Part shown: positions 10,581 to 26,913 of the stretch, piece by piece
Layout: each line of letters opens with the position of its first letter
Numbering within the stretch: the first letter of the stretch is position 1
NCBI GenBank assembly: GCA_049521795.1
Contig: JBEKOM010000001.1
Span: 160,001-224,000 of the forward strand
Source of the DNA: Candidatus Bathyarchaeia archaeon
GTDB lineage: Archaea > Thermoproteota > Bathyarchaeia > Bathyarchaeales > Bathycorpusculaceae
Reading direction: 5' to 3'
DNA length: 64,000 bases
Made by a program: the position numbers and the translations under genes
Notes under the pieces: model-generated
Database searches by the model: none
What the model was told of the DNA's origin: nothing
What the model saw: only the letters and a program-made list of their open reading frames with translations

Positions 10581-10859
10581 ATGTCTGAAAGCAACGCAGT
10601 GCTGATCGGAAACAAGCCAGTAATGAACTATGTACTGGCATGCATAACCCTCTTTCACGGCGGAGCGAAGGAAGTGAACGTCAAGGCACGAGGGAGATCA
10701 ATAAGTCGAGCAGTCGACGTCGTCGAAGTCGTCAGACGCAGATTCCTGCCAGACGTAAAAGTCAAAAGTGTTGGCATTGGAACACAGCAGATGGCACCCA
10801 GAGAAGAGGGTGGCTCGCCTTCAAACGTGAGCACAATCGAGATCTCGCTTGCACGCTAA
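10581..10859 (+). CDS. albA: Chromatin protein Alba
   Basis: [14 protein letters not shown]...[16 protein letters not shown]...NVSTIEI. Confidence 0.97.
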
Positions 10860-10925
10860 GAATCGTTTATAGCTAGAATCAATGCTCCGCCGCCCCTCCT
10901 TAGTTCGCGGAGGGCGATTTTGTAG

Positions 10926-11435
10926 TTGAAGATGGGGCTTTGCAGCTTCTGTCTAAAGAGTGGTATGCTGTGCCAAAAGTGTTTAGCTAAAGTAGAGTCT
11001 GGAGAAATAAGCGAGCTTGACCTGAAAATCGCCCGAATACTGATGTCGTTAGAGGAAAAGTACCCCTCTCTTCAAAACCTATACTTTCACAAAGCAATCG
11101 ATGCCGACGGCACCTTGGCGATAGTGGTTGGCCCCGGAGATGTCCCACGCCTCCTGGGTTACGGAGGGAAGATTGTCAGAGCAATAGGCGACGAGACAGG
11201 CAAGAACGTGCGTGTTTTAGAGTACGGGGTTGATGACAGAAAATTTCTAGAAGACCTTTTTGCGCCTATCAGCATAATGACGATTAACACGATATGGTTG
11301 CCAGACGGAAGCATGGAAACTCGAGTTATTCTGCGAAGAAGACGTGTGACACACCCGTCTTTTGATGTAAAGGCTTTAAAGGAGATCGCCAGTAGAGTTC
11401 GCAACATAACGTTGCGAGTAGAGTTTGCGGACTAG
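10926..11435 (+). CDS. Archaeal NusA-like KH-domain protein with N-terminal Cys cluster
   Basis: CSFCLKSGMLCQKC, LLGYGGKIVR KH motif, INTIWLPDGS; conserved position next to aspS. Confidence 0.8.
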   Translation: MKMGLCSFCLKSGMLCQKCLAKVESGEISELDLKIARILMSLEEKYPSLQNLYFHKAIDADGTLAIVVGPGDVPRLLGYGGKIVRAIGDETGKNVRVLEYGVDDRKFLEDLFAPISIMTINTIWLPDGSMETRVILRRRRVTHPSFDVKALKEIASRVRNITLRVEFAD

Positions 11436-11456
11436 GCAGCACGGTGAAAGGCTCTC

Positions 11457-12776
11457 ATGAAACTGGATTCCATTGATGATTGGCGCAGAACGCACTATTC
11501 TGTTGACGTTAAACCTGACCTCGACGGCCAAGAGGTTACCCTTTTCGGTTGGGTCCAAGAAATAAGAGACCTGGGTGGAATTCGCTTCATAATATTGCAG
11601 GACAGGGAAGGCACGATTCAAGTCACCATCCTTCGAAAGAAGGCCCCCAGCGAAGTCATATCGAAGTCCGACGGACTGCAGAGACGCTACAGCATAGCCG
11701 TGAAAGGAACGGTGAAGAAGACTGACATGACGCAAAGAGGCGTCGAAGTCTTACCGAATGATATCAAGATTCTGAGCACAGCCACGCGAGAGTTGTCAAT
11801 AGACATTTGTGACAAGACCCCAGCAAGTATCGAAACGTGCTTGGAAGCACGAACACTGGACTTGTGTCGAGAAAAAAACATCGCAGTCTTCAAGGTCCAA
11901 CACACCGCGGTAGAAGCAATCAGAGGTTTCCTTTTCGAAAGAGGCTTCTTAGAGGTGCACACGCCTCGCATAATTGCCTCAGCGACAGAAGGAGGCTCTG
12001 CACTCTTTCAACTTGACTATTTTGACAGAAAAGCATACCTGGCTCAGAGCCCGCAGTTGTACAAAGAAGAGCTTGTCATGAGCCTGGAAAAGGTCTTCGA
12101 GATCGGACCCTTTTTCAGAGCTGAAGAGTCGCACACTCGGAGCCACCTGAGCGAGTTCGTGTCGATAGACATCGAACAGGCTTTCGCAACAGCTGAAGAT
12201 GTGATGCAGATACTTGAGCAGCTCATGCGACACGTTTGCAAGACCGTGGGTGAAAAACGTCAGAGGGAACTGAGGACGCTGAAATATAGCTTGAAGGTGC
12301 CGGATGTTCCTTTCAAACGACTAAAATACTCTGAGGTTCTCGAAGAACTGAACCGGGAGGGCATGGAGATTCCATGGGGACAGGACATACCGACACCAGC
12401 CTATAGGAAGCTGGGAAAGCTTCATCCGTCCTTCTATTTCATAGTTGATTGGCCAACGGAGACAAGAGCCTTCTACACAAAGCCGCGTGACGACTGCCCC
12501 GAAATCTCTGAAGGTTTCGACCTGATGTGGCGCTGGTTGGAGCTCGTTTCGGGCGGTACCAGAATAGCCTCGAAAGACCTGCTCATGAAGCGGCTTAGAG
12601 AGAAGGGTCTGAGCCCGGAAGCCTTCAAGCACCACCTTCAAGCTTTTGATTATGGAATGCCGCCGCATGCAGGTTGGGCAATCGGGTTGGAAAGGCTGAC
12701 GATGATGTTGACAGGTAAGAAGAACATAAGAGAGGTCACACTTTATCCTCGAGACAAGTTCAGACTGACCCCGTGA
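11457..12776 (+). CDS. aspS: Aspartate--tRNA ligase (archaeal type)
   Basis: GWVQEIRDLGG OB fold, LAQSPQLYK, FRAEES, GMPPHAG..IGLERL, PRD. Confidence 0.95.
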   Translation: MKLDSIDDWRRTHYSVDVKPDLDGQEVTLFGWVQEIRDLGGIRFIILQDREGTIQVTILRKKAPSEVISKSDGLQRRYSIAVKGTVKKTDMTQRGVEVLPNDIKILSTATRELSIDICDKTPASIETCLEARTLDLCREKNIAVFKVQHTAVEAIRGFLFERGFLEVHTPRIIASATEGGSALFQLDYFDRKAYLAQSPQLYKEELVMSLEKVFEIGPFFRAEESHTRSHLSEFVSIDIEQAFATAEDVMQILEQLMRHVCKTVGEKRQRELRTLKYSLKVPDVPFKRLKYSEVLEELNREGMEIPWGQDIPTPAYRKLGKLHPSFYFIVDWPTETRAFYTKPRDDCPEISEGFDLMWRWLELVSGGTRIASKDLLMKRLREKGLSPEAFKHHLQAFDYGMPPHAGWAIGLERLTMMLTGKKNIREVTLYPRDKFRLTP

Positions 12777-12871
12777 GGCTTCGATTAGCATTGTTCTTGT
12801 AAAAGTCGACATGGTATTTAGTTAAAAATGTGCTCAAAACTGATAAATAGCGGTTCCCTTACTGCCCAGTC

Positions 12872-14377
12872 ATGGGAGACCAGCCGAAGATCGCATGTGG
12901 AGTATTTGCAGCTGTAAACTACGATAAGCGGCCAGTGTTTCAAAACATTTATTGGGGTTTACGGGCTGAAAACCACAGGGGACATCAGTCTCATGGTTTC
13001 CTCACGTATTTTGACGGAAAGTTCCACGTTCACAGAAGCCTCGACCTCGTGCCGAAGATTAGAACGAGCGCAATTCAAGAATGGTTTGGCCGGTTGCCTG
13101 GAAATGTCGGCATTGGAAACGTGAGGTACACAACGTCCGGAAGATGCGACGAGAAATCGCTCGTGGAAGGCACGCAACCAGTGACAGCTTCAAAACAAGG
13201 CCATGGGCTCGCGATTTCCTACAACGGCAACGTGGTCAACACGTTCGAGCTTCGGAAAGAGATATCCAAGGAGTTTCCACAGTTTACCAGTGAATGCGAC
13301 GCAGACCTAATCTGCTATAAACTGCTGATCGAAGTCTTGAGAGGAAAAGATCTAACGTCCGCCGTTGGGACATGCATGGAAGAAATCGACGGAGCCTTTT
13401 CTGTGGCGTGCATTGACCAAGACGGCAATCTCTTCGCCTTCAAGGACCCACATGGAATAAGACCGTTGTGCGCAGGCCACAGCGAAGACCATTCAACGTA
13501 TGCATTCTCGTCTGAAACCGTCAGTTTAGACATAAACGGTTTCGTAAGAGATTTCGAGCTGTTGCCAGGAGAGCTGGTCACGGTTTCAAACAAGGGGTTT
13601 CAAAGACAGAAGCTCATAAAAGGGAAAGTAAAGGCTTTCTGCGCCTTTGAATTCGCATACTTTGCAAGGCCAGACTCACGGTTTGACAGCAAGTACGTCT
13701 ATGAGATTCGTGAAGAATTTGGAAGAAACCTTGTGAGAGAGAATCCGAAGGTTGTCAAGGACGCGGACATAATTCTTTCCGTGCCTGAAACAGGGGACGA
13801 CTCGGCCCTCGGCGTTCACGAAGCTTCTGGGTTGAGATGGGAGAGGGCTTCACGAAGACACCGCTACGTAACCGAGAGGGCATTCATCCTGCTTAGCAAA
13901 GACCGAAGCCCAACGATAGAGAGGAAAATCAACATCCTCGGTCCCAGAATCGAAGGAAAACGCATCATAATAACCGAAGACAGCATCGTCAGAGGAGACA
14001 CGACAAGGGTCATAATTGACAAACTGCGCAGGATGGGCGCCGAGAAAGTGTACGTTTTCGTCACTTTTCCACGGATAATCGGACCATGTCTGTACGGAAT
14101 AGACATGGCAACATACGGCCAACTCATAGGCTCAAGACACAGCACGGAAGAAATCGCAAAGATCATAGGGGCAGACGGCGTGTGCTACCAGTCACTCGAA
14201 GGCCTGGTACAAGCAACAGGGTTCAAGCAAGACGAGTTGTGCACGGGATGCATAACAGGCAAATATCCAACACCGCTGGCCCAAGCAATAGCCGATGAGA
14301 TGAAGAAACGGTTCTCGCAGGGTTTTGAAGAGAGAGAAAGACTGTACGAAATGGAAGAAGCTGTTCCTAGAGCCTAG
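12872..14377 (+). CDS. purF: Amidophosphoribosyltransferase
   Basis: Short propeptide then N-terminal Cys (CGVF), HRG, GNVRYTTSG, DPHGIRPL, CAFEFAYFARPDS, EDSIVRG, CTGCITGKYP. Confidence 0.93.
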   Translation: MGDQPKIACGVFAAVNYDKRPVFQNIYWGLRAENHRGHQSHGFLTYFDGKFHVHRSLDLVPKIRTSAIQEWFGRLPGNVGIGNVRYTTSGRCDEKSLVEGTQPVTASKQGHGLAISYNGNVVNTFELRKEISKEFPQFTSECDADLICYKLLIEVLRGKDLTSAVGTCMEEIDGAFSVACIDQDGNLFAFKDPHGIRPLCAGHSEDHSTYAFSSETVSLDINGFVRDFELLPGELVTVSNKGFQRQKLIKGKVKAFCAFEFAYFARPDSRFDSKYVYEIREEFGRNLVRENPKVVKDADIILSVPETGDDSALGVHEASGLRWERASRRHRYVTERAFILLSKDRSPTIERKINILGPRIEGKRIIITEDSIVRGDTTRVIIDKLRRMGAEKVYVFVTFPRIIGPCLYGIDMATYGQLIGSRHSTEEIAKIIGADGVCYQSLEGLVQATGFKQDELCTGCITGKYPTPLAQAIADEMKKRFSQGFEERERLYEMEEAVPRA

Positions 14378-14406
14378 CGCAAGAACTGGTCTTCACGGTC
14401 AATCCG

Positions 14407-15834
14407 ATGGCAGACGGGTTACTCATGGAAAAAGTGGGCGTGCTTGTCGTTTCTTATGGGTCAAGAGAAGTAGCCATGGTGGACGCTTTTGCCCGCAGCC
14501 GAAACTACAAAGTGGAGATCTACATTGCTGATAAGCAACGCAACCCCTTCAACGCGAAGAGGGCAGCCAAACACGTTGTAATACCTGACTTGAATGTTGA
14601 AGAAATCTGCAAATTCGCAGAGAGGAACAAGCCTGGAATTGACTTCGGTATCGTGGGCACTGAAAAACCGATAATCGAGGGAATTCGGGATCTCGTGGAG
14701 AAACGAACAGGAATACCCATGATCTGTCCAACAAAGCGATGTGCTATCGAGGGAAGCAAGGTTCAACAACGGCTCCTCTTCAAAAGAGTCGCCCCCGAAG
14801 TCAACCCGCGCTTTAAGATATTCAACCCAAAAGAGTACAAAACCGTTGCAGAAGTCAAGAAAGACGTTTACGATTGGCTCGACAAACTGGCTGACCAAGC
14901 TGTAGTTAAACCGGACAAGCCAGCAGCCGGAAAAGGCGTCGGCGTCTGGGGCGACCACTTCTCGAACCGAGAACAACTGTTCGAACACTTCCTCTCAAAC
15001 TACCAACACGGTTCAGTGATAATAGAAGAAAAAATCGAAGGAGAGGAATCAAGCTTTCAGGCGTTCTGCGACGGAAAACATCTTCTACCTCTGCCGGACA
15101 CCAGAGACTACAAACGGGCGTTCGACGAGGATAAGGGGCCGAACACGGGAGGAATGGGTTCGTACAAGGGCGTCGGAGACGTGTTGCCGTTTCTATCTGA
15201 TGCTGATCGTGCCAAAGAGCTGAACGTCGTCAACACGATCTTTCAAGGATGGAAAGGAGAAGACAGTTCAGCCCTTCGAGGCGTCCCTTTCTACGTTGCC
15301 TTCATGCACACGCGCAGAAAACTGAAGATTCTTGAGAACAACAGTCGACCGGGAGACCCCGAGATGATCAACATAATGCCCGTCTTGAAAGATGATTTCC
15401 TTGATGTATGTTACAAAATGTTGGAAGGAAACCTGACAAGGCTCCAATTAGAAAAAGCCGCGACAGTGGTAACCTACAAGGCTCCACCTTCCTACGGCGG
15501 ATACGCAGAAACCTTCCCAAGCCTTGTCAAAACAGACAGCGTTGACAGACCAGTCGACCTGGCGAGAGCTTATGAATTGAGCAAGAAATATGGTGACGAT
15601 ATTCGAATCTACCCCGCATCGATGGAAAAACGTGAAGGCAAGACCTTCGCCCTCAAATCCAGAGCCGTGTGCGCCGTGGGCATCAGCGAAAGCATAGAAA
15701 AAGCTCGGCAGATCTCACTTGAAGGCTTGAAGGCAATACGGGGTGGATCCCTCTGGAATCGAACCGACGTAGCCTCAGAAAACCACATAGAGAAAAGCGT
15801 AAAGCACATGGAGAAGCTGAGGCACAAGCCGTGA
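14407..15834 (+). CDS. purD: Phosphoribosylamine--glycine ligase (GAR synthetase)
   Basis: GSREVAM, IEGSK, VVKPDKPAAGKGV, DYKRAFDEDKGPNTGGMGS, ENNSRPGDPE. Start may be 14425. Confidence 0.93.
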   Translation: MADGLLMEKVGVLVVSYGSREVAMVDAFARSRNYKVEIYIADKQRNPFNAKRAAKHVVIPDLNVEEICKFAERNKPGIDFGIVGTEKPIIEGIRDLVEKRTGIPMICPTKRCAIEGSKVQQRLLFKRVAPEVNPRFKIFNPKEYKTVAEVKKDVYDWLDKLADQAVVKPDKPAAGKGVGVWGDHFSNREQLFEHFLSNYQHGSVIIEEKIEGEESSFQAFCDGKHLLPLPDTRDYKRAFDEDKGPNTGGMGSYKGVGDVLPFLSDADRAKELNVVNTIFQGWKGEDSSALRGVPFYVAFMHTRRKLKILENNSRPGDPEMINIMPVLKDDFLDVCYKMLEGNLTRLQLEKAATVVTYKAPPSYGGYAETFPSLVKTDSVDRPVDLARAYELSKKYGDDIRIYPASMEKREGKTFALKSRAVCAVGISESIEKARQISLEGLKAIRGGSLWNRTDVASENHIEKSVKHMEKLRHKP

Positions 15835-16913
15835 AGAGGCTTTTCATCACAGACTGCGAAGGACCCATTTCGAAGAACGACAACGCTCTCGAAACGCTGT
15901 CACATTTTGTCCCACAAGGCGACAGACTCTTCACCGTCGTAAGCAGGTATGACGATGTCCTTTCAGACGTGTTGAGAAGACCAGGATACCACGCAGGCGA
16001 CACGTTGAAGCTTGTGCTACCCTTCCTGAAGGCATACGACGTTACCGACGAAGAGAGTAGACAGTTTTCTGCCAGAAGCCTCGTCTTGATCGCACTCGCA
16101 GGGGACTCGCTTCGACACATGAGAAGCATTGCACCGGCATACATCGTCAGCACAAGCTACGAACACTACATCAGGGCCTTATGCAAGGCTCTTGAGTTTC
16201 CGTTTGAGAAAACCTATTGCACTAAGCTCAGCTTGGACGCGTACACCGTAACCTCAGAGGAGAAAGACGGCCTAAGAAAATTCGGCTGTGAAATCGCGCA
16301 GTTACCCATGTTCGAGAGTCCAGCAGAAACGAAGAGTCTAAAAGACCTTCCAGAAGAGGCTCAGACAACAATTCGAAGGCTGGATGAGATTTTCTGGAAA
16401 ACCATTGCTAAAATGCCGATCGGAAAAATCTATTCTGAAGTCAACCCTGTTGGAGGCAGAGAAAAAGCTGAAGTAATAAAGGACATAACAGGCAAGGAAT
16501 GCGTGGCTTTAAAGGACACGATGTACGTGGGTGACAGCATAACTGACGAGGAAGCCTTCAAGCTTGTGAAGGAAAACGGCGGTCTGACTGTTTCATTCAA
16601 CGGGAACCAATACGCTGTCAGAAACGCTGAAATCGCACTGCTCTCCGAGGACAGTTTGACGACGGCGGTGATCGCTGACGTTTTCATCAAGTTCGGAAAA
16701 ACGGAAACACTAAAACTAGTGGCGAAATGGAATAGCAGAACGCTAGAGAACAGTTCAATGAACGAGGACTTGCGAGAACAATTTCTCAAACTGCATCCTC
16801 GAGAACTGCCCAAAGCCAGAATAGTAACGAGGGAAAACATGAAAGACCTAGCGAAGGAGAGTAGCGAGTTTAGAAAGAAGATCAGAGGAAAAGCCATCGG
16901 CAGGTTAGGATAG
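15831..16913 (+). CDS. HAD-superfamily phosphohydrolase, EhaR-like
   Basis: [15 protein letters not shown] (motif I variant DxEG), IVSTSYEHY (motif II), K, YVGDSITD (motif IV), [12 protein letters not shown] overlap with purD. Confidence 0.85.
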
Positions 16914-16915
16914 GT

Positions 16916-17830
16916 TTGATCAAGAAAGACTTGATTGAAGACACGTATGCCGAAGCCTTTTCAGGATTATACTGCCGCGTCTTAGTGACCGCGGATGACG
17001 AAGAGACAGTTAAGAAGGCTGCTGACGATGCGACCGCAACGCCTTCAGGTGTTATAGGTAGACTTGACAGCGGAGTCGAAAGACTGCTGGGGAAGAGTGA
17101 AACGCCCGATGCTCGAAGAGGAGCAATCTTGCAGTTCTGGAAGGGCCTGGACAGAGGAAAACCTCTGGAAGGCATGCTTGACCGTTTTGAAAAGGAGCTT
17201 TCCTACCGAATTCGTCAAGACATCTTGGTGAAGCCTTTCACAGCGGTCTTCGACGCTTTGTCCGTGGAGCCTGAGGGGAAAATGGACATGATGGAAAGGG
17301 TTGGCCACTGCGGAGACGGGTATGAGTGGGAAGAGCAACTGTACGGAAAGAAAGTGATCGTCGTCCCAATCATGGTGCCTGACTTTCTCATAGAGCGTTT
17401 CATCGGCTACGCGAGAGGAATCGCTGGCGGCAACTTCTGGTACATGTGCAAAACGAAAAAACAAGTAGTTCTCGCCGGAAAGAAGGCGCTGGCAGCCATA
17501 CATCAGGTTGAGGGCGTAACAACGCCATTCGACGTCTGCTCAGCCGGGTCGAAGACTGAAACGCGCTTTCCCCTGATAGGGCCCACCACAAATCATCCGT
17601 ACTGCCCCTCCCTGAAGAGGAAGTTAAAGACCGAGTCCAAAGTGCCAGAAGGCGTCAACTACATCCCAGAAATAGTGATCAACGGCATCTCCATTGACGC
17701 AGTTAGAAAAGCAATGAAGGCCGGCATAGAAGCGGTTTTGAGCGTTGATGGCGTGGTGAGGGTTTCTGCGGGAAACTACGGTGGAAAGCTGGGTGAACAC
17801 AAGATAAATTTGAAAGAGCTGTTTCGATGA
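16916..17830 (+). CDS. Formylmethanofuran--H4MPT formyltransferase paralogue (EhaS/Ftr-II-like)
   Basis: [66 protein letters not shown]. Lacks the canonical TSVIxCxxEAG segment (has [12 protein letters not shown]). Confidence 0.88.
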
Positions 17831-18756
17831 GCAGGCTCGATGCTATAGGATTCGGCGCCCTCAACGTTGACAAGCTGTTTAAAGTGAACAGAATAGCCGC
17901 TGCTGAAGAAGAGAGCTTTGTAGCCTCTCACTCAGAGACTTGCGGCGGCTCAGCGGCAAACACCATGGTGGCCTTGGCAAGACTTGGCTGCAAAGTAGGC
18001 TTCATCGGCAAGATTGCCAGCGACGCTGAAGGAAGAATGCTGCTTCAAGATTTTCGAAAAGAAGGCGTTGATACAAGAGGCGTAACGGTTGCGACGACGG
18101 GAAGAAGCGGCAAAGTAATGGGTTTCGTGGGCAAAAGGGGAGAACGCGCATTGTACATAGACCCGGGCGTGAACGACGCAATAAAACTCGCCGAAATAGA
18201 CACTGAATATGCGTCAAACACTAAATTCTTGCATTTATCATCCTTCGTTGGAAGACAGTCGTTCGAAACACAGAAAAAACTCGTTAAAAAGCTGCCTGAA
18301 AAAGTCAAGGTGAGCTTCGACCCTGGAGCACTGTACGCGAGAATCGGATTTGCGAAGCTGAAGCCCGTCTTAGACAGGACCTCTGTGATGATGCCTAACG
18401 CGGGTGAACTGGCCTTACTGACGGGCAAGAGTGACTACAAAGCGGGCGCACGATTGCTAATTGACGAAGGGGTTGAAGCCTTAGCTGTGAAGCTGGGAAG
18501 CAAAGGATGCTACGTCATGGACAAAGAAGAAAGCTGCCTAGTGGAACCCTTCAAAGTCGAGGTTGTTGACACGACTGGAGCTGGCGACGCGTTCGACGCT
18601 GGCTTCATCTACGGACTACTCTCCGGCAAGAACATCAATGAAGCCGGAAAAATAGGCAATTTCATCGCCTCAAGGTCTATCACCGCTATGGGCGCCAGAG
18701 CTGGCCTGCCAACACTTGACGACTTGAAGAAATCTCTTGGCACAAGTCGAAATTAG
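17827..18756 (+). CDS. PfkB/ribokinase-family kinase (EhaT-like, putative nucleoside kinase)
   Basis: [44 protein letters not shown] overlap with the Ftr-like gene. Confidence 0.92.
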
Positions 18757-19198
18757 CACACGGCCATCCCTTAGGCTGCCAATCTATCAATCCTAAGAAA
18801 AGTGTGCTCAGCTACCAAGTGAAAGCCTGACCTCCATGGGAAATGATAGACGGTCAGCAACATGTGAGCGGGGCAGAAAAAAGAACTCCGCGTGATAGTG
18901 CCGTACATTGAAAAATCACAACCCTTGCCCAGACTCTCGGCAAGGTCCTCGGCACGCACTCGTCTGTAAGCCCGTACAAATCCACTAGGGCCTTCATTAA
19001 GGTCCACGTGCAGTACCAGTACCCTAGGGGGAGGGGGGTGCAATAGACGAGGCCAAAAGACGAATACAGGGATGTTAGGTTCTCTGTGGGCAAACCGTGA
19101 ACACGGCGACAAGAGCAATCATAACGTGCAGAGTTCTTTTCATCAAGCACGCAACCGTGCATGGAGATTTTCGAAGACAAGCTGCCCTAGAAGGAATG

Positions 19199-19275
19199 TG
19201 GTGCGGTCGCCGGGATTTGAACCCGGGTCGTCGGCGTGGGAGGCCGATGTCCTAGCCATGCTAGACTACGACCGC
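19199..19275 (-). tRNA. tRNA-Gly(CCC), intronless, CCA encoded
   Basis: Reverse complement GCGGTCGTAGTCTAGCATGGCTAGGACATCGGCCTCCCACGCCGACGACCCGGGTTCAAATCCCGGCGACCGCACCA; anticodon arm TCGGC-CT-CCC-AC-GCCGA. Confidence 0.96.
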
Positions 19276-19365
19276 ATTGTTTAGAAAATCTTGCACAGAA
19301 GAGACGACTAGCGTAGACTTTCAACCCTCGCCCCACGGCTCTTCAGCGATCGCACCTCGTCTCGT

Positions 19366-20934
19366 TTATCCCTCTTCTTCAACAACACGAGCTTTCGGCT
19401 TTTTGCTGCCATTAGCCCGCGTCGATAGGTATACCGTGGTTATCAAGAATGCTGCCGTTATTGCCCCAAAGACGTACGTGAGGTTGTGAATGTTTTGCAC
19501 GCTTTGAGATTGATCCATCAAGCTGCTCTGTAAAGACGAGTTCAACGCCAGATAGCTGCTCTGCAGTTGGCTGAGGTTTTGCAGCAAGAGGTCAAAGCTG
19601 CTCAGCAGAGCCTTATACGTGGAGCTCATGTTGTCGATCTCAGCCTGCAGGCTCGCGTTATAGTTGCTCAAAAGAGCTTGGTATGTCGCGTTCAAGCTGT
19701 TAAAGTCTGTTTGAAGCTTAGTATACTCGCTAAGCAATTCGCTCTGCAACTGTAGTACTTCTGAAGAGATCACAGTAATGCTCTGATCCCCGTGCGGGTA
19801 GCTGAAGTACAAATAAGTAGTTGCGTTATCAGAAGCGCTCAACAAAGAGGTTGCAACCTCTCCTTCACGATCTACGACGATCAAGGGGTACTCCATCAGC
19901 GACACCGGAATCGTCATCCTACAGAAACCAGATGTACCGTCCTTCCCGACTGCACTGAAGCTGACCATCTTGTAGCCCGTTTCTCTGCCAACTTCAAACT
20001 TGAAATCAGGGATTGTGGAGTTGCTGATAACGGTTATCTGAAATTTCTCATAGTTGTACATTATGTCGTACTCGGAAAAAGTTCCCACCAAGGGATAGTT
20101 ATCCTGGTTATTCTCATCTATGGTATAGTTCTCGTCTCCAATCCCGTTTGTGCTCGGTCCTGTGAAATTGTAGTCAGCGAAGTAATTCCCTTCACCGTCA
20201 CGACTCCAAACATTTGTTGACGGACTATTTACTTGAATTGGGTTTGCGTCCAAAAAGTTGTTATGGTAAAAGAAGTTCCTGTTGCTGTCCGCAGAAAGAA
20301 AAACATCAACGACATTATCTGAAAACGTGTTACCAGAAAACAGGTTGCTGTAAAGGTAACCATTAAAGACGACTCCGATTGAGTTACTTGAAAGAATGTT
20401 ATTCGAAAACACGTTGCCGCTTGAACCAGAGATCATGATTCCATTGGAGTTATTGACGATAGCGTCGTTCGAAAAGGCGCCGTTGCTGGACAAGTCAAGA
20501 GTCAGGCCAGTGTTAGTGTTCGTGATCTCAGTGTCACTTATGACGACTCCAGTGCTTCGTGACACATGTATCCCGACGCCGGAATGGCCTAAGATGGTAT
20601 TGGTGATGGTCAAACTTTCAATGGTCACGTTTCCACTGCTTATTGAAATCGCGTAGTCGCCACCATTGCCATCAATAATCGTTGTCGTTCTGTTTTCTCC
20701 GACAATAGACAGACTCTTTTTGATTGTGAGATTTTCATGGTAGGTGCCGGTGGCCACCAAGATCGTGTCGCCTGAACTTGCATTGTCAATGGCTGCCTGG
20801 ATCGTTCCAGTGGTTGAAACGTGGATAACGCCCGGACTTGCATAAACATACACTCTACATCTAACAAAGGAAAACATGAAGAGCAAAAATAACCCAATTA
20901 GCACAATCGAAACGACTTTCTTCAAATCAATCAC
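19366..20934 (-). CDS. Secreted, membrane-anchored NosD/pectin-lyase-like beta-helix surface protein with coiled-coil stalk
   Basis: Signal peptide, TIQAAIDNASSGDTILVATGTYHE, Asn-rich beta-helix repeats, FYHNNF, GNYF..DNYPL, coiled coil, C-terminal TM. Confidence 0.85.
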   Translation of the reverse strand: MIDLKKVVSIVLIGLFLLFMFSFVRCRVYVYASPGVIHVSTTGTIQAAIDNASSGDTILVATGTYHENLTIKKSLSIVGENRTTTIIDGNGGDYAISISSGNVTIESLTITNTILGHSGVGIHVSRSTGVVISDTEITNTNTGLTLDLSSNGAFSNDAIVNNSNGIMISGSSGNVFSNNILSSNSIGVVFNGYLYSNLFSGNTFSDNVVDVFLSADSNRNFFYHNNFLDANPIQVNSPSTNVWSRDGEGNYFADYNFTGPSTNGIGDENYTIDENNQDNYPLVGTFSEYDIMYNYEKFQITVISNSTIPDFKFEVGRETGYKMVSFSAVGKDGTSGFCRMTIPVSLMEYPLIVVDREGEVATSLLSASDNATTYLYFSYPHGDQSITVISSEVLQLQSELLSEYTKLQTDFNSLNATYQALLSNYNASLQAEIDNMSSTYKALLSSFDLLLQNLSQLQSSYLALNSSLQSSLMDQSQSVQNIHNLTYVFGAITAAFLITTVYLSTRANGSKKPKARVVEEEG

Positions 20935-20985
20935 ACATTCTTTTCTAGTCCACAGAATTATTAAACGTTAAGGTAACATCCAAAA

Positions 20986-21687
20986 TCATCTACGAGCAAG
21001 CATTTCTCCCAGTATCAAGGAGCAAATGACAGATACACACAGACCGGAAACAAAAAGAACCGTATTGATGACAGGCTGTACGAGTGCCCACAAAACTGCA
21101 GAATAGGAGGCTATTACAAAGAACATTAGTGCGACAGCCCTGAAATATCCTCTTCTACCTCTCTCTTGCTGGACCGAAGCAGAGCGGAGTAGGTCTTGCA
21201 TCTGTCTTATCTGCTCGTCAGTCGCCAGGACAACAAGGTTCTTGTCACTGTCTTGAAACTTGAAGCTTGAAAGCGCGTATCTCTGGAGTTGCCAAGGATT
21301 TCTCTTTGGCAAGATTCTGACAATGTGACTCTTCTCCATCTTCTTCAGTATCGTCTGAATCTTACGGACAAACTGGAGGTCAACCGTCTTTTCTTCTCCA
21401 TACAACCTTCTTATCAGGTCTTTGACGTCCGGAAACGTCAATTCCAACTGGAAGGACGCGATTGCCTTGACAAGATTGAACTGATATTCACCTTCTCGCA
21501 AACGCAAATTGCCAGTAACGCAGTCTGCACTCGCGGTTTCTTTAAGAAATTTTATCTCACTTGGCAACAAACGGTGCTCAGACACTGTTTTCCCTGAATC
21601 AATAGTTTCAATTGACCTATATAATAAATACTTCGTGCAGGAAATGTGCGAATTCAACTCTTTCAACTCATCTGTCTCCATTTTCAA
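20986..21687 (-). CDS. Hypothetical winged-helix protein with two C-terminal TM helices
   Basis: PDVKDLIRRLY...VRKIQTILKKMEKSHIVRILP..WQLQRYAL resembles a wHTH; two hydrophobic segments at the C-terminus. Confidence 0.6.
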   Translation of the reverse strand: MKMETDELKELNSHISCTKYLLYRSIETIDSGKTVSEHRLLPSEIKFLKETASADCVTGNLRLREGEYQFNLVKAIASFQLELTFPDVKDLIRRLYGEEKTVDLQFVRKIQTILKKMEKSHIVRILPKRNPWQLQRYALSSFKFQDSDKNLVVLATDEQIRQMQDLLRSASVQQERGRRGYFRAVALMFFVIASYSAVLWALVQPVINTVLFVSGLCVSVICSLILGEMLARR

Positions 21688-21735
21688 TAGCGTCTACAGA
21701 AAAATCCCTTAAGTGATTAAAACGAGTGTTAACAA

Positions 21736-22143
21736 ATGGGAGTGTTATATATGGAGAATTATGTCATTGACCGCAATTTGTCCTATTTACCTTTGCAAAA
21801 TAGATACCGTCTGTGCGGTTTCCCTCTGGGCAAGAAGTACAGAAGCCACTTCGAAATCATAGCTTTGATGGTTGAAGCTGTCAAGGATGGAGGACAGACG
21901 AGATTCTCCATAATGAAGCGCGCAGGCATCAACTGCGGCCAACTCAAGAGATTTCTTAGGTCTCTCATTGAGATGGGCTTCATCCAAGAATATGTGAAAG
22001 ATGGCAAGGTCGTGTTCAGAGCAAGTGAGAGAGGGCTTGGCTTTCTAAGGCAGTATTACGTGTTGCTGACCATGGTTTTGGCCGCTGAGAATGGAACTAG
22101 ACGGTCGACTATGGTGTATGAACCGCAACTGAGGCAGAGATGA
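21736..22143 (+). CDS. Small winged-helix regulator (HTH_45-like); true start may be downstream
   Basis: YRSHFEIIALMVEA...TRFSIMKRAGIN..QLKRFLRSLIEMGFI...FRASERG. Confidence 0.8.
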   Translation: MGVLYMENYVIDRNLSYLPLQNRYRLCGFPLGKKYRSHFEIIALMVEAVKDGGQTRFSIMKRAGINCGQLKRFLRSLIEMGFIQEYVKDGKVVFRASERGLGFLRQYYVLLTMVLAAENGTRRSTMVYEPQLRQR

Positions 22144-22327
22144 AGCTCTGGAAATGCCCTAATATCCTGCTAGACTCGAAACAGAATTCTCTTTTCCCAC
22201 ATTGACTGCAACGTAGTTCTGATCCACTGCTACCAAGAGCAGTTCATTGGCTCAATCTCTTTTGCAGGGAAGGAACGATGTTTTATAAATCAAGAACCAG
22301 ATAGACTTCAAACAAGAAGGCCTAGCA

Positions 22328-23404
22328 GTGACCCGAAAACTCACCTACTCCGACTCTGGAGTTGACAGAGACTTAAGAGCTGAGTCAAAAAAAGCGTTAC
22401 ACATATTGAAGCAGACTTACGAACATAGCCGATACGGTAAAGTTGTCGAGCTTCCATACGGAAACATTTTTCCATTTCACGACCGTTATCTGGACCTGAC
22501 TATTGAAGGAGTCGGGACAAAAGTGCTCATTGCCCAGCTAGCAGACAAATACGATACCATTGGAATTGACGGCGTGGCAATGGCAGTCAATGACGTCATA
22601 CGTTCTGGCGCGAGACCAATCGCAATCGCAGATAACATCCACGCACAGGTTTCCGACCCTTCTCTTGTCAAAGAATGGATGAGAGGCATTTCAAGAGCGG
22701 CAGCCGAGTCAGAATGCATCGTTCCCAGCGGCGAGATTGGCGACGTAGCCGATCTGATAAATGGTCTCCGGTCAGGCAAGGGGTTCGACATGATTTTCGC
22801 GGCAGTAGGTGAAGTCGCTAAAGAAGATGTGATTTCAGGAAGAAACATAGGCCCTGGGGACCCAATAATAGGCTTGAAGAGTTCAGGGCTTCACAGCAAC
22901 GGCATATCTCTCGCCAGAAAAGTTCTTTTCAGGCAATGGGGCGGGAAGTACGAGGCGGACGCTGTTCCTGACGGGTTTGAACAAGAGCTAGTCCGTGAAG
23001 TCTTGGAACCGACCAGAATATACGTCAAGCCATTTCTCAGACTGACAAAAAAACTTGAAGTCAAGGCTGCAGTGCACATCACTGGCGACGCATACCTCAA
23101 GTTTGGCCGCCTTGCAAAGCCTTCCCAAGCCATAGGCTTCGAATTTGACAACATCAAACAGCAGCCAATCTTCGACTTGGTCCAAAAAACCGCAAGCGAA
23201 CTGAAAAGCCCGATAACGGACAAGGAGATGTTCAAAACATTCAACATGGGGTGGGGATTCGCAGCCATAGTGGAAAAAGCCGAAGCAGACAAGGCCTTAG
23301 ACACTTTGAACAAAGCAGGAGTAGAATCAGAACAGATAGGCCACGTAACGAGCTCCAGAGGAATCAGAGTCCTGCACAAGGGTAAGAAAATCATTTTGGA
23401 TTAG
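22328..23404 (+). CDS. purM: Phosphoribosylformylglycinamidine cyclo-ligase (AIR synthetase)
   Basis: TYSDSGVD, EGVGTK, GIDGVAMAVND, SSGLHSNGISLARK, LEPTRIY, HITG, TFNMGWG. Confidence 0.95.
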   Translation: MTRKLTYSDSGVDRDLRAESKKALHILKQTYEHSRYGKVVELPYGNIFPFHDRYLDLTIEGVGTKVLIAQLADKYDTIGIDGVAMAVNDVIRSGARPIAIADNIHAQVSDPSLVKEWMRGISRAAAESECIVPSGEIGDVADLINGLRSGKGFDMIFAAVGEVAKEDVISGRNIGPGDPIIGLKSSGLHSNGISLARKVLFRQWGGKYEADAVPDGFEQELVREVLEPTRIYVKPFLRLTKKLEVKAAVHITGDAYLKFGRLAKPSQAIGFEFDNIKQQPIFDLVQKTASELKSPITDKEMFKTFNMGWGFAAIVEKAEADKALDTLNKAGVESEQIGHVTSSRGIRVLHKGKKIILD

Positions 23405-23461
23405 CAGTTTGCTCTGAGGGTGGCAAAAGCGTTTAAATCCATTTCGGTCCAAGCCTAGCCT

Positions 23462-23713
23462 ATGAAATACTGCCTGAGAATCGAGGTGAGCTTGAAGCCT
23501 GGGCACAGCGACCCTGAAGGCGAGACGACCGCACAGTTATTGAAAGAGCTTGGCTATGAAATTGAAGCTGCAAATGTCAGCAAAGTCTACACCGTAACTC
23601 TTGAAGCTGGGTCAAAGAAGGAAGCTAAAACGAAAGCTGAAGAGATGTGCAAGAGGCTTCTGGCAAATCCAACGAAGGATAATTACTCGGTCAAAATTGA
23701 GGAAAAGCGATGA
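23462..23713 (+). CDS. purS: FGAM synthase subunit PurS
   Basis: LKPGHSDPEG...EMCKRLLANP. Confidence 0.95.
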   Translation: MKYCLRIEVSLKPGHSDPEGETTAQLLKELGYEIEAANVSKVYTVTLEAGSKKEAKTKAEEMCKRLLANPTKDNYSVKIEEKR

Positions 23714-26091
23714 CTGCAAGCCTCTACATCCGCAGAGAAACCCCTTTTCCCCTCTTTGAAATCAATCTTCACGACGCAACAAACGAGCAGCTTGTTGAGA
23801 TAAGCCGTGAACTCGGCATCGGCCTGAACCTGGAAGAAATGAATCTTGCCAAACAGTATTTCGCCAAAAAAAGAGGGAATCCGACTGATGTGGAACTTCA
23901 GACAATAGGCCAGACGTGGTCAGAGCACTGTTTCCACAAGACTTTCAAGGGTAAGATAAGATTCGGCGGGAAGGAAATCGACAGCCTGTTCAAAAAGTAC
24001 ATCGGCAAAGTTGTAGAGAAAATCAACCCATCCTGGTGCTTCTCTGTTTTTGAAGATAATGCTGGTATAGTCGATTTCGACAAGGGCTACGGAGTGGCAA
24101 TCAAGGTTGAAACGCACAATCACCCATCTGCGGTAGAGCCCTTCGGAGGGGCAGCAACCGGAACAGGCGGCGTCATCCGGGACATTCTAGGCGTTTGGGC
24201 GGACCCGATCGCGTGCACCGATGTTTTGGGATTTGGACCGCTGGATTTTGATTATGCGAAACTCCCAGCCGGGGTTAAACATCCGAAATACGTGTACATG
24301 GGCGTCGTCGCTGGCATAGGAAGCTACGGTAACAATATGGGAATTCCAACGGTCAACGGCGCCATATACTTCGATGAAAGCTACGTTGGGAATGTTGTGG
24401 TCTACTGCGGATGCATTGGGCTCCTTCCACTCAACAAGTTTAGGAAAGACGCAAAAGCGAATGAAGTCATCGTTTTGGCCGGCGGAAAAACTGGCCGGGA
24501 CGGCATACACGGCGTTACCTTCGCCTCTGCCGAACTGACGGAAAAATCAGAGGAGATTTCTCGCCCAGCAGTTCAGATAGCCAACCCGATCGAGGAGGAA
24601 AAGCTCAAGAGGGCAATAATCAAAATTCGAGACCTCGAGTTGGCATCCGCGATCACAGACTTAGGCGGTGGTGGTCTATCCTCTGCCGTGGGCGAAACCG
24701 CGAAAAAGTTTAACTGCGGCGCAGCGGTGGAGCTTGGAAAAGTTCCTCTGAAACATGTGGACCTAGCCCCATGGGAAATCTACGTCTCAGAATCTCAAGA
24801 AAGAATGCTCCTAACAACGCCGCCTGAAAACCTGGACCGTTTGTTAGCTGTCTTTGAAGATGAAGACGTTGAAGCCACGGCTATCGGAAAGCTGACCTCA
24901 AACAAGACACTGCGACTAAGTTTTCACGGCCTAGAAGTTGCAGAAATGGACATCGCATTCCTGTTTGAGCCCCCTAGAATGACTAAGACGGCAAAATACA
25001 GAGTAGCAGACTTGGAAGAGCCGGAAATTGCCACACGAGAAGACCTCGCAGAAACGGTTTTGCAGCTTCTTTCTTCGCCCAACATTGCGAGCAAAGAGAG
25101 TGTCGTGCGAACGTACGATCATGAAGTGAAAGGGAACACGGTGCTGAAGCCGTTGCAGGGCAGGAACGGCGGTCCCAACGACGCTGCCGTGTTGAAACCT
25201 TTGGATGAATGCTGGAAGGGTGTAGCAATCTCGTGCGGCATGAACCCTAACTACGGAAAAATAGACACTTACTGGATGGCTGCTTCTGTCATAGATGAAG
25301 CGGTGCGAAACAACGTGGCTGTGGGCGGAAGACGAATAGCCCTTCTTGACAACTTTACATGGGGCAATCCTGAACGGCCAGAGAGGCTTGGAAGCTTGGT
25401 CAGAGCGTGCGAGGCATGTTATGACTTCGCATTTGGATACGGCACGCCGTTCATCTCGGGGAAGGACAGCCTGTACAACGAGTCACCCTTGGGCCCAGTG
25501 ACTCCGACGCTGTTGATAACGGCGCTAGGCATAGTTCCTGATGTTCGTTCCGCAGTGTCTGTGGACGTCAAGGCCCCAGGCGATTTGATCTACATCGTTG
25601 GAGGAACCTTCAAAGAGCTCGGCGGTTCAGAATACTACAGAATGAACGGCGCTCTCGGAAGAACCGTGCCCAAAGTGCGGAGGAACCAGGCTAAGAAGAC
25701 CTTTGACGCAGTGACCGAGGCGATTGATTCTGGACTGGTCAGAGCATGTCACGACCTTTCTGAAGGAGGTTTAGCTGTCAGCGCAGCGGAATTGGCTTTT
25801 GCAGGTGGGTACGGGATCGTGCTGGATCTGAGGAAGGTTCCTTCGCAGAAGTTGAACCGTGACGATTTTCTGCTGTTCTCGGAGTCGAACAGTCGTTTCC
25901 TCGTAGAAGTCTCTGCAGAGGCGAAGGAACGCTTTGAGACCATAATGCGAGGCAGGGTTTTTGCAGAGATTGGCAGCGTTACAAAGTCTCCCAAACTGTG
26001 TATCACAGGGTTAGCGGGCGAGGTCGTCGTGGACGTTTTGCTCAACGATCTGGCGGCGAGTTGGAAGCGAACGCTCAGCAAGAGGGTTTAG
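23710..26091 (+). CDS. purL: FGAM synthase subunit PurL
   Basis: QTWSEHCFHK, KVETHNHPSAVEPFGGAATG, TGRDGIHG, SESQERM, FISGKDSLYN, HDLSEGG. Confidence 0.97.
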   Translation: MTASLYIRRETPFPLFEINLHDATNEQLVEISRELGIGLNLEEMNLAKQYFAKKRGNPTDVELQTIGQTWSEHCFHKTFKGKIRFGGKEIDSLFKKYIGKVVEKINPSWCFSVFEDNAGIVDFDKGYGVAIKVETHNHPSAVEPFGGAATGTGGVIRDILGVWADPIACTDVLGFGPLDFDYAKLPAGVKHPKYVYMGVVAGIGSYGNNMGIPTVNGAIYFDESYVGNVVVYCGCIGLLPLNKFRKDAKANEVIVLAGGKTGRDGIHGVTFASAELTEKSEEISRPAVQIANPIEEEKLKRAIIKIRDLELASAITDLGGGGLSSAVGETAKKFNCGAAVELGKVPLKHVDLAPWEIYVSESQERMLLTTPPENLDRLLAVFEDEDVEATAIGKLTSNKTLRLSFHGLEVAEMDIAFLFEPPRMTKTAKYRVADLEEPEIATREDLAETVLQLLSSPNIASKESVVRTYDHEVKGNTVLKPLQGRNGGPNDAAVLKPLDECWKGVAISCGMNPNYGKIDTYWMAASVIDEAVRNNVAVGGRRIALLDNFTWGNPERPERLGSLVRACEACYDFAFGYGTPFISGKDSLYNESPLGPVTPTLLITALGIVPDVRSAVSVDVKAPGDLIYIVGGTFKELGGSEYYRMNGALGRTVPKVRRNQAKKTFDAVTEAIDSGLVRACHDLSEGGLAVSAAELAFAGGYGIVLDLRKVPSQKLNRDDFLLFSESNSRFLVEVSAEAKERFETIMRGRVFAEIGSVTKSPKLCITGLAGEVVVDVLLNDLAASWKRTLSKRV

Positions 26092-26094
26092 GCT

Positions 26095-26913
26095 GTGAAG
26101 CGAGAAGAGATCAGGATCTGTGTCTCGCGAGTAGGCGGAACGAACTGTGATGCTGAGACGAAACGGGCGTTCGAGGCGCTGGGCGTTCAAGCTGAAGTTG
26201 TGCATGCGAACGAGATGGTGAAGCGGCGAAGCATGTTGGACTATGATGCGCTGGTTTTTCCAGGCGGTTTCGCTTACGGCGACTATGTTAGAGCTGGAGC
26301 CATATGGGCGAAGTGGATAATGTCCAAGTTGGGCAAAGAGTTAAAAGTCTTTGTGGACGAAAACCGTCCGATCCTCGGCATCTGCAACGGGTTTCAGGTG
26401 CTCGTTGAGGCAGGGTTGCTTCCGGCTTTTGAAGGAATCAGCCTATATCCTGAGGCAGCGTTGGCCACTAATCTTCCGCCGGGGTACAACTGCAGATGGG
26501 TCAGCGTTAAGCATGAGAGCAGAGGAAAGTGCGTGTTCACGTCAAAGATTCCCCGCGGAAAGGTACTCCGCGTACCAGTCGCGCACAGTGAGGGCAGGTT
26601 CATGTTTGCAAGAGAAAAAGAGAGGCAGTGCTTGGAGAGGCTTTACGAGAACGATCAGCTTGTCTTTCGCTACTGCAACAGCAGCGGCGAGTACGCAGAA
26701 GGTGCTTATCCGACAAACCCAAACGGCTCGTTTCATGACATAGTGGGCGTTTGCAACCCTGAGGGAACAGTGTTCGGCCTAATGCCGCATCCTGAAAGAG
26801 CCTTCTACTGGTGGCAGCAGCCAGACTGGACCAGACAGAAACAGACATCCGAGTACGGAGACGGAAAACTGATCTTCGAGAGCCTGATAAGCCATTTGGA
26901 AAGAAAAGGTTAA
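26095..26913 (+). CDS. purQ: FGAM synthase glutaminase subunit PurQ
   Basis: GTNCD, PGGFAYGDY, LGICNGFQ, AHSEG, NPNGS, MPHPER. Confidence 0.97.
   Translation: MKREEIRICVSRVGGTNCDAETKRAFEALGVQAEVVHANEMVKRRSMLDYDALVFPGGFAYGDYVRAGAIWAKWIMSKLGKELKVFVDENRPILGICNGFQVLVEAGLLPAFEGISLYPEAALATNLPPGYNCRWVSVKHESRGKCVFTSKIPRGKVLRVPVAHSEGRFMFAREKERQCLERLYENDQLVFRYCNSSGEYAEGAYPTNPNGSFHDIVGVCNPEGTVFGLMPHPERAFYWWQQPDWTRQKQTSEYGDGKLIFESLISHLERKG

Follow-up and report, generated by a model that had tools for sequence, protein, structure and literature searches.

The closest described counterpart of the system considered here lies at the end of the eha operon of Methanothermobacter, where a haloacid dehalogenase (HAD)-like protein, EhaR, an Ftr-like formyltransferase, EhaS, and a ribokinase-like protein, EhaT, are encoded together. 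EhaS and EhaT, originally taken for Ftr and ribokinase, are encoded by genes that are cotranscribed with eha (PMC3087415). In the 2011 curation of archaeal purine synthesis, Archaeoglobi, Methanobacteriales and Methanopyrus are described as being without PurN and PurT, the enzymes that formylate glycinamide ribonucleotide (GAR) to formylglycinamide ribonucleotide (FGAR) (Brown et al. 2011, PMC3261824). A later study reports a divergent Ftr, Ftr2, in the anaerobic methanotrophic archaea (ANME) ANME-1 and in both ANME-2a and ANME-2b as well as in Archaeoglobales, Methanopyrus and Methanothermobacter, states that only Ftr1 has been characterised, and describes ANME-1 as being without PurN and PurT (Chadwick et al. 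2022, PMC9012536). Here, we analyse a stretch of 64,000 nucleotides from a Candidatus Bathyarchaeia archaeon (contig JBEKOM010000001.1, positions 160,001 to 224,000; hereafter the window, in whose positions the coordinates are given), in which genes for a HAD-fold phosphatase-like protein, an Ftr paralogue of the Ftr2 type and a PfkB-family kinase stand as a trio inside a purine operon. We propose that this three-protein module probably supplies the GAR to FGAR step, for which the genome encodes no PurN and no PurT.

The window belongs to contig C1 of a 2.44-Mb genome with a completeness of 98.75%, whose nearest relatives are all labelled Bathyarchaeia. Within a co-directional gene cluster that spans positions 10581-26913, the trio is placed between purF-purD and purM-purS-purL-purQ. 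Specifically, the EhaR/AF1437-type HAD-fold phosphatase-like protein (360 residues) is encoded at 15831..16913 (+), the EhaS-type formyltransferase Ftr2 (304 residues) at 16916..17830 (+), and the EhaT-type, module-specific kinase (309 residues) at 17827..18756 (+). These three co-directional open reading frames (ORFs) bear out the first-pass annotation, which had placed a HAD protein with DCEG and GDSITD motifs before an Ftr paralogue and a ribokinase-family kinase after it. The purD stop and the start of the HAD gene share a GTGA overlap at 15831-15834, the HAD gene and ftr2 are spaced by 2 nucleotides, and ftr2 and pfkB meet in an ATGA overlap; the genes of the trio are translationally coupled, to each other and to purD. 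No hydrogenase gene was found in the cluster, where the neighbours of the HAD gene are purF, purD, ftr2, pfkB, purM, purS, purL and purQ.

A whole-genome search returned no match for a PurN-type protein (PF00551) and no match for PurT, and PurH is absent as well, while PurP and the formylmethanofuran dehydrogenase subunit FwdA (811 bits) are both encoded. PurP thus covers the second purine formylation and FwdA allows formyl-methanofuran to be made, which leaves GAR formylation alone unaccounted for. The distribution of the same genes was surveyed in a class sample of 151 Bathyarchaeia genomes, assembled for a completeness of at least 90% (122 of the 151 are tallied at that level with at most 5% contamination), with a threshold of E≤1e-30 for PurT-like ATP-grasp proteins, whose matches score 224-303 bits and lie below the PurT cut-off. 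The EhaR family occurs in 68 of these genomes, PF00551 in 61, the PurT-like protein in 9 and purD (GARS_A) in 134. The 134 purD-positive genomes divide into 67 with EhaR, 55 with PF00551 only, 9 with the PurT-like protein only, and 3 with none of them (G219, G222 and G244). EhaR and the PurT-like protein never occur in the same genome (0/151), and EhaR and PF00551 occur together in five (G217, G213, G068, G036 and G261); in the first four of these the PF00551 gene is of a divergent, PurN-like type, which is tied to the module in the first three. The three families are all missing from 15 of the 17 purD-negative genomes; of the other two, the first has a fragmentary EhaR match at the edge of a contig and the second has PF00551. 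In addition, canonical purN directly follows purD in the module-free relatives L176 and L177 (purF-purD-purN), and so takes the same slot after purD as the trio does here. Because the genomes are related members of one class, the counts do not stand for independent events; nevertheless, the pattern of EhaR against PurN and PurT is the one that functional substitution predicts. Taken together, the lack of PurN and PurT in the genome, the near-complementary distribution over the 151 genomes and the shared purN slot uphold the earlier claim that the trio is one unit tied to GAR formylation.

The arrangement of the trio is itself conserved. Among the best 80 loci from a search with a narrow alignment of the HAD protein, which come only from Bathyarchaeia, ehaR, ftr2 and pfkB are adjacent in 73; four further loci end at a contig edge, and the remaining three (L039, L046 and L060) show purF-purD-ehaR, with ftr2 and pfkB adjacent to each other at another place in the genome (69-72% and 66% identity). 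Of the 80 loci, 76 have purD as the gene directly upstream of ehaR, and the other four begin less than about 510 nucleotides before ehaR. The adjacency of the three genes is not a matter of chance, and the trio is a conserved module. In a phylum sample of 201 genomes, the EhaR family occurs in 26, all of them among the 29 members of the class, and in 0 of the 172 others. One 3.6-kb contig (L048), whose record is labelled Candidatus Thorarchaeota, carries ehaR-ftr2-pfkB, 58-70% identical to the genes of Bathyarchaeia, which probably reflects the mis-binning of a Bathyarchaeia contig and not a module of Asgard archaea.

Across a wider set of loci, the HAD-kinase pair stays constant while its formyltransferase changes, the partner of the pair being Ftr2 or a PurN-like protein, and that of EhaR in fusions also a PurT-like one. 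Operons of the order purF-purD-PurN-like-ehaR-pfkB are present in G217 and G213 (L088 and L089). G068 has the parts distributed between two loci (L090 and L091), the PF00551 gene following purF-purD at about 12 kb from ehaR. These three genomes and G036 keep FwdA and have a single Ftr, which is of the Ftr1 type and 39-41% identical to Ftr2; Ftr2 is absent in all four. A PurN-like gene also stands directly upstream of ehaR in 13 metagenome loci, with pfkB visible downstream in 6 of them, and six of the other seven are on contigs that end within about 0.4 kb of ehaR; the seventh, L171, has about 2 kb of downstream sequence with no kinase match. The order PurN-like-ehaR-pfkB is found as well on contig L149, which is assigned to a bacterium because its neighbouring genes encode trigger factor, ClpP, EF-P, an aspartyl-tRNA synthetase (AspRS) with a GAD domain, and topoisomerase I. 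Fusions occur among 633 representative homologues, P0173 joining a PurN-like protein to EhaR and P0195 and P0203 joining an ATP-grasp protein to EhaR. The only detectable relatives of the ATP-grasp part of P0195 and P0203 are PurT proteins, in a stretch that holds the PurT-type signature NE(I)S.RP.D.G, and this part scores about 33 bits against the PurT equivalog models, below their cut-offs of 339 and 502. The partner type switches repeatedly on a tree of 37 EhaR proteins, with four changes for the Ftr label and three for the PurN-like label, and the archaeal PurN-associated EhaRs nest within the Bathyarchaeia clade associated with Ftr2.

The PurN-like partner departs from ordinary PurN in a defined way. 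It scores 53-75 bits against the PurN equivalog TIGR00639 (cut-off 150) and keeps the Asn-His-Asp triad, and it has S(S/T)GRDxAA in place of the canonical N-terminal SGRGSN loop, which the ordinary PurN of the same class possesses. The possibility that the module gene is simply an ordinary PurN was rejected, given an identity of 24-31% to the canonical PurN of the class and the missing signature loop. Presumably the SGRGSN loop holds the 5'-phosphate of GAR, as in Escherichia coli PurN structures, a role for which the literature searched gave no confirmation; if it is correct, the loss of the loop and the gain of an Asp would fit an acceptor that carries no phosphate. The same partner also shows that the reason given earlier for the module, an Ftr pocket that does not bind a 5'-phosphate, cannot hold in general, since a PurN-family partner has the same HAD and kinase companions.

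Several features of these loci were noted along the way. The ATP-grasp-EhaR fusion proteins, whose PurT-like part is very divergent, are 899-964 residues long (e.g. positions 10001-12895 of L094), and in L097 the two parts are separate, adjoining ORFs with ThiF and multiubiquitin genes upstream. In L113, L114, L116 and L118, an ORF of 226 residues (12220-12900 (-) in L113) stands just upstream of the kinase gene on the same strand, has no Pfam or NCBIfam match, and is a candidate for a further partner enzyme.

A further question is whether the trio has to do with GAR formylation at all. It could instead consist of subunits or helpers of an energy-converting hydrogenase or serve methanofuran/methanopterin metabolism, its place among pur genes being incidental, an idea encouraged by the ribosyl-phosphate intermediates in the biosynthesis of tetrahydromethanopterin (H4MPT) and by the family name EhaR used by the Joint Genome Institute (JGI). 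The cotranscription of the Methanothermobacter homologues with eha points in that direction too, and it was taken as making sugar activation or methanogenic formyl transfer unlikely for them (PMC3087415). Set against this are the lack of a hydrogenase gene in the cluster of the window, the position of purD upstream of ehaR in nearly all of the 80 loci, the complementarity of the module with PurN and PurT among purD-positive genomes, its occurrence in only 1 of the 17 purD-negative genomes, and there as a fragment, and the existence of a bacterial version with a folate-type formyltransferase. We consider a role unrelated to GAR formylation extremely unlikely.

The kinase matches the PfkB family domain (PF00294, 5.2e-55) and carries its hallmarks, the G40-G41 dipeptide and G251-A-G-D254 (18577..18588 (+)), which forms the anion hole and holds the catalytic Asp. 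At its N terminus lies N13-V-D15 (17863..17871 (+)), which we take to be the sugar-hydroxyl-binding motif of ribofuranose kinases. It scores 171.1 bits against the ribokinase equivalog TIGR02152 (cut-off 299.65) and 133.3 bits against NF008353 (cut-off 341), and lies under all NCBIfam equivalog cut-offs for ribokinase, ribose-1-phosphate kinase and nucleoside kinase. In 21 module kinases, N13, D15, G40-G41-S42, N45, R107, N116, D248 and G251-A-G-D254 are invariant, and a Gly-Ala-Arg motif at 289-291 is common to all of them as well. A profile built from these 21 kinases was run over the 151-genome class sample. At a threshold of at least 379 bits, orthologues are found in 61 of the 68 EhaR-positive genomes and in 0 of the 83 EhaR-negative ones, where the best score is 263 bits. 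The seven EhaR-positive genomes that have no such match are G092, G107, G172, G205, G251, G291 and G307; the ehaR match in G307 is only partial, ehaR in G251 begins close to the end of its contig, and in G205 a PfkB gene of more divergent sequence lies about 1.9 kb from ehaR. Thus, the kinase belongs to the module and forms an orthologue group of its own that is confined to EhaR-positive genomes. The window genome has only one other PfkB gene, and on the tree a very long branch lies between it and all module kinases. The candidate identity of the module kinase as the general ribokinase of the cell was rejected on these grounds, namely the confinement of its orthologue group to module genomes and its distance from the other PfkB protein.

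A kinase of this family next to a phosphatase could also form, as the first-pass annotation suggested by way of an alternative, a salvage or repair pair for the ribosides of purine intermediates (those of GAR, FGAR and 5-aminoimidazole-4-carboxamide (AICA)), the kinase recovering ribosides that have strayed from the pathway by dephosphorylation, the HAD protein clearing a damaged or excess phosphorylated intermediate, and formylation being a separate matter. PfkB kinases are known to salvage such ribosides, examples being adenosine kinase, which acts on AICA riboside, and the Salmonella aminoimidazole riboside kinase; HAD phosphatases often serve in housekeeping and repair, and the pairing with pur genes fits. 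A repair pair, however, is not expected only where PurN and PurT are absent, nor is it expected to be fused to formyltransferase domains, and a phosphatase and a kinase that act on the same scaffold within one operon would cycle futilely if no step stood between them. We consider this explanation very unlikely.

The HAD protein has no Pfam match at E≤1e-3, and its NCBIfam matches, to HAD-IIB and HAD-IB, are weak and all under cut-off. By sequence it matches AF1437 (PDB 1Y8A) with an E-value of 3.5e-29. An AlphaFold2 model built from an alignment of 59 homologues, with a predicted local distance difference test score (pLDDT) of 97.2, returns 1Y8A as the top Foldseek match (E 7e-20, template modelling (TM) scores 0.80/0.91), followed by phosphoserine phosphatases, ThrH and MtnX; haloacid dehalogenases are matched too. 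The product of 15831-16913 is accordingly a HAD-fold protein, with a Rossmannoid core and a cap. The similarity to AF1437 and to EhaR-named proteins is full-length, and the JGI name of its homologues is 'energy-converting hydrogenase A subunit R'.

All four HAD motifs can be located. The N-terminal FITDCEGP holds motif I, D8-C9-E10-G11 (15852..15863 (+)), in which the nucleophile Asp is present and Glu replaces Asp at +2; motif II is Ser107 in STSY (16149..16151 (+)), motif III is Lys212 (16464..16466 (+)), and motif IV is G234-D-S-I-T-D239 in YVGDSITD (16530..16547 (+)). Conservation was read from two sets, one of 59 diverse family representatives and one of 37 EhaR members with resolved gene context, which covers five context types including a bacterial one. 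Among the 59 representatives, D8 is kept in 49, E10 in 53, Ser or Thr at 107 in 59, K212 in 57, D235 in 49 and D239 in 59, and all six positions are kept in 37/37 of the context-resolved members. G11 and P12 are likewise identical in all 37, so that motif I there always reads D-x-E-G-P. A basic C-terminal tail, R..(V/I)RG...G.LG (16869..16910 (+)), ends in an invariant Leu-Gly and is found in 37/37 context-resolved members, archaeal and bacterial, and may act in docking or as a lid. The idea that EhaR uses its conserved C-terminal Gly as a carrier in glycine chemistry was discarded, as its amino group lies in a peptide bond and cannot be formylated. The Asp/Glu arrangement of motif I also occurs in MtnC, an active enolase-phosphatase, and is for that reason no argument against hydrolysis. 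Because the catalytic residues of the HAD protein and the motifs of the kinase are intact, both are expected to be genuine enzymes, a phosphatase and a kinase, and the earlier claim that a phosphatase and a kinase flank the formyltransferase agrees with the residues kept in both.

These features raise the question of whether the HAD protein releases phosphate at all. It might be a phosphate holder resembling a phosphotransferase or mutase, or a GAR-binding scaffold for the formyltransferase, retaining the phosphate on its Asp during formylation of the acceptor, with the kinase serving only to prime or rescue the system. ThrH, a phosphoserine:homoserine phosphotransferase, is among its closest folds, motif I has Glu in place of the usual second Asp, the formyltransferase fusions argue for physical coupling, and the invariant Leu-Gly tail suggests docking. 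Yet the same motif I is found in active MtnC, a mechanism of this kind is without precedent, and a dedicated, strictly co-inherited kinase exceeds what rescue would need. We regard a holder or scaffold function as very unlikely.

Ftr2 scores above the gathering thresholds for both Ftr lobes (PF01913, 1.2e-42 and 145.7 bits; PF02741, 9.6e-58 and 194.9 bits) and matches the PDB Ftr structures 1M5S and 1M5H at E ~3e-56. It passes the subfamily model NF002554 (348 bits, cut-off 297) and falls below the Ftr equivalog TIGR03119 (245.5 bits, cut-off 292.6). It is termed a paralogue because a second, canonical Ftr (Ftr1) is encoded on contig C5 (L001, 1516-2394), with which it has 107 of 304 aligned positions in common. 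Glu252, in the motif EIVING (17669..17671 (+)), is invariant in 33 Ftr2 sequences, is also present in the Ftr1 of the genome, and aligns with the motif of Methanosarcina barkeri Ftr. In FhcD, Glu252 stabilises the oxyanion (PMC6926001). By motif alignment, from which alone the residue correspondence is drawn, Glu252 of Ftr2 is probably the catalytic, oxyanion-stabilising Glu. Over the 33 sequences, 43 positions are invariant in Ftr2, 29 of which are common to Ftr1 and 14 of which differ. The Ftr2-specific invariants include D124, G130, C132 and E137 in GHCGDGYEW, where M. barkeri Ftr has KFFADGMES, and this set is a possible acceptor-site signature of Ftr2. A fusion of Ftr2 with the kinase was not found: a search for longer proteins with Ftr2 returned only Amidohydro_3+Ftr, which is weak evidence, since the equivalent search with the HAD protein missed EhaR fusions that do exist.

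A formyltransferase with its catalytic Glu and most of its invariant positions in common with Ftr1, sitting in the purN slot of a genome without PurN and PurT, could also formylate GAR directly, as a third GAR formyltransferase in its own right, with the HAD protein and the kinase as accessories that set the size of the GAR/FGAR pools or form a GAR-presenting complex, and with no main flux through ribosides. The chemistry would be simpler, PurL already makes the pathway irreversible, and L107-L112 have ehaR-ftr2 with no kinase nearby. Left unexplained by direct formylation, however, are the co-inheritance of an intact phosphatase (37/37) with a dedicated kinase (61/68 against 0/83), the persistence of the HAD-kinase pair where a PurN-like protein stands in for Ftr2, the fusion of EhaR to two other kinds of formyltransferase, and the loss of the SGxGSN loop in the PurN-like partner. 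On balance, we consider direct formylation of GAR by Ftr2 unlikely.

Gene content, translational coupling, conservation of catalytic residues, co-inheritance, and complementarity with PurN and PurT are direct observations, and any explanation must cover an intact phosphatase, a kinase of the ribofuranose-5-kinase type, and a formyltransferase that may have any of three folds, all in place of an enzyme whose substrate and product each bear a 5'-phosphate. The best single explanation is the three-step route of the first-pass annotation, dephosphorylation, formylation and rephosphorylation through ribosides, which uses every part and fits better than any rival framed; as a claim about the actual chemistry it is tentative, and we place it somewhat below an even chance. 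For this route we infer the substrates, the order in which they are processed, the donor of the formyl group and a rationale in terms of energy, as follows. The HAD enzyme would take the 5'-phosphate off GAR to give glycinamide riboside. Ftr2 would then formylate the free glycinamide amine, with formyl-methanofuran or N5-formyl-H4MPT as the donor, both of which are available because the genome has FwdA and canonical Ftr. Finally, the kinase would use ATP to convert formylglycinamide riboside to FGAR.

The energetic rationale of the riboside route would be a trap. Because both donors have a low formyl-transfer potential, passing the formyl group on to GAR would be a reaction close to equilibrium. 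Its exchange between H4MPT and the furan amine is such a reaction, at 4.4 kJ/mol (PMC6926001); transfer from formyl-methanofuran to another primary amine should behave likewise. Cycling of the phosphate would then act as an ATP-driven trap, in which a kinase specific for the formylated riboside makes the step irreversible at a cost of one ATP, the same as that of PurT. The formyltransferase would be the exchangeable part, and the phosphatase and kinase would define the route. A broader version, in which these archaea and some bacteria make purines through obligatory glycinamide and formylglycinamide ribosides, a dedicated phosphatase and kinase flanking an exchangeable formyltransferase (Ftr-like, PurN-like or PurT-like) to form an ATP-driven trap by which low-potential donors such as formyl-methanofuran can drive the third step of purine synthesis, and which would also explain EhaR, EhaS and EhaT, is possible, and we hold it with rather more doubt.

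A number of observations weigh against the riboside route. Gene order, which the first-pass annotation had read as matching the order of the reactions, carries no information because it varies among loci: sister modules run PurN-like, HAD, kinase, and in other loci the kinase gene is convergent or lies elsewhere. Kinases are not always visible, since L107-L112 have ehaR-ftr2 beside canonical purD with no PfkB match within 10 kb, and the flanks of the ATP-grasp fusion loci (L094 and L096-L099) show neither kinase nor pur genes. In L113, L114, L116 and L118, purF-purD-ehaR is accompanied by a convergent pfkB and by no recognisable formyltransferase nearby, and in L100-L105 ehaR stands alone. Invariant R107 and R291 of the kinase could mean an anionic substrate instead of a neutral riboside. 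About 10 of the 59 EhaR representatives have neither the nucleophile Asp nor the first Asp of motif IV; these nucleophile-less members also have no C-terminal Leu-Gly tail, one of their clusters is labelled Methanomethylophilaceae, and such degenerate proteins might mean that hydrolysis is dispensable. With regard to energy, a PurT-like partner already spends ATP, so that an added phosphate cycle would cost two, and PurL already pulls FGAR forward with ATP, so that an extra trap is not obviously required.

The module offers a concrete three-protein candidate for the GAR formylation gap, which has been open since the 2011 archaeal purine curation (PMC3261824), and it is also a candidate for the function of EhaR, EhaS and EhaT in methanogens. 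A literature search lacking most subscription journals found no paper that proposes the module as a GAR formylation route, and searches on AF1437, 1Y8A and MTH402-404 found nothing relevant. Current annotations name the parts Ftr, ribokinase, HAD hydrolase and hydrogenase subunit, and genome-scale models use a gap reaction. Eha is thought to supply reduced ferredoxin for making formyl-methanofuran; if the riboside route is true, EhaR, EhaS and EhaT at the end of the eha operon would be an anabolic outlet for that formyl-methanofuran. The route, if real, would also make this one of the few core biosynthetic pathways to step away deliberately from the nucleotide level, and would represent a new coupling of ATP to group transfer through cycling of the substrate's own phosphate.

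The remaining genes of the cluster place the module in its operon. Upstream, genes for Alba, a NusA-like KH protein and a non-discriminating AspRS precede purF and purD. The operon begins with purF (amidophosphoribosyltransferase, 12872..14377 (+)), which has a GATase_7 domain and matches TIGR01134 at 9.5e-93 and 311.9 bits (cut-off 350). It is followed by a divergent subtype of purD (GAR synthetase, 14407..15834 (+)), with GARS_A, GARS_N and GARS_C and a TIGR00877 score of 244.6 bits (cut-off 288). In most module-bearing genomes, the GARS_A match of purD begins at model position 18-40 and scores about 100-130 bits, and in most PurN- or PurT-bearing genomes it runs from position 1-2 onward and scores 145-240 bits, with exceptions in both directions (e.g. 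G212, G204 and G224); PurD may have co-diverged with the module. Between pfkB and purM, the pur cluster is interrupted by genes for a NosD-like beta-helix protein (19366-20934 (-)), a protein of 233 residues with no known identity (20986-21687 (-)), and an Sso10a-like winged-helix protein (21736-22143 (+)). This set co-travels beside purM in many related loci (e.g. L008, L012, L017, L018, L035, L061 and L075), and the Sso10a-like protein could be a regulator of the pur cluster. The series closes with purM (22328..23404 (+); TIGR00878, 253.6 bits, over its cut-off), purS (23462..23713 (+); TIGR00302, 5.5e-21), purL (23710..26091 (+); TIGR01736, 671 bits) and purQ (26095..26913 (+); NF002252, 311.5 bits).

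Compared with known systems, the trio is of the same kind as EhaR-EhaS-EhaT of methanogens, a link drawn from papers, JGI names and Atlas cluster names (an Atlas cluster from Methanobacteriota that was automatically named EhaR is among those nearest to the HAD protein); unlike the methanogen genes, it stands in a purine operon and in a non-methanogen class. Among the individual proteins, the HAD protein has AF1437 of Archaeoglobus fulgidus, a structural-genomics protein, as its nearest solved structure and has the same DxEGP motif I, although the identity is about 25% and the motif is DCEGP as opposed to DWEGP. Like the next-best structural matches SerB, ThrH and MtnX of HAD subfamily I, which have a helical cap, it carries all four HAD motifs; it differs from them in its low identity (11-16%), larger size, extra helical parts, C-terminal tail, and DxE in place of DxD. 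The kinase has the PfkB fold and the NxD, GG and GAGD motifs of ribokinase and nucleoside kinases, and the Salmonella aminoimidazole riboside kinase provides a PfkB precedent for turning the riboside of a purine intermediate into its nucleotide. Ftr2 has the two-lobe fold and catalytic Glu of Ftr (EC 2.3.1.101; PDB 1FTR, 1M5H and 1M5S) and FhcD (6S6Y), but the acceptor of canonical Ftr is H4MPT, whereas the proposed acceptor of Ftr2 is the glycinamide amine. As a whole, the module resembles PurN and PurT in its proposed net reaction and its slot after purD, with the one-ATP cost of PurT, and departs from both in having a formyltransferase of unrelated fold in the window, two extra enzymes and a proposed riboside acceptor; unlike in PurT, the ATP would be spent on the phosphate of the substrate rather than on formyl phosphate. 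Taken together, these comparisons describe what is probably a new system of three enzymes for a known reaction.

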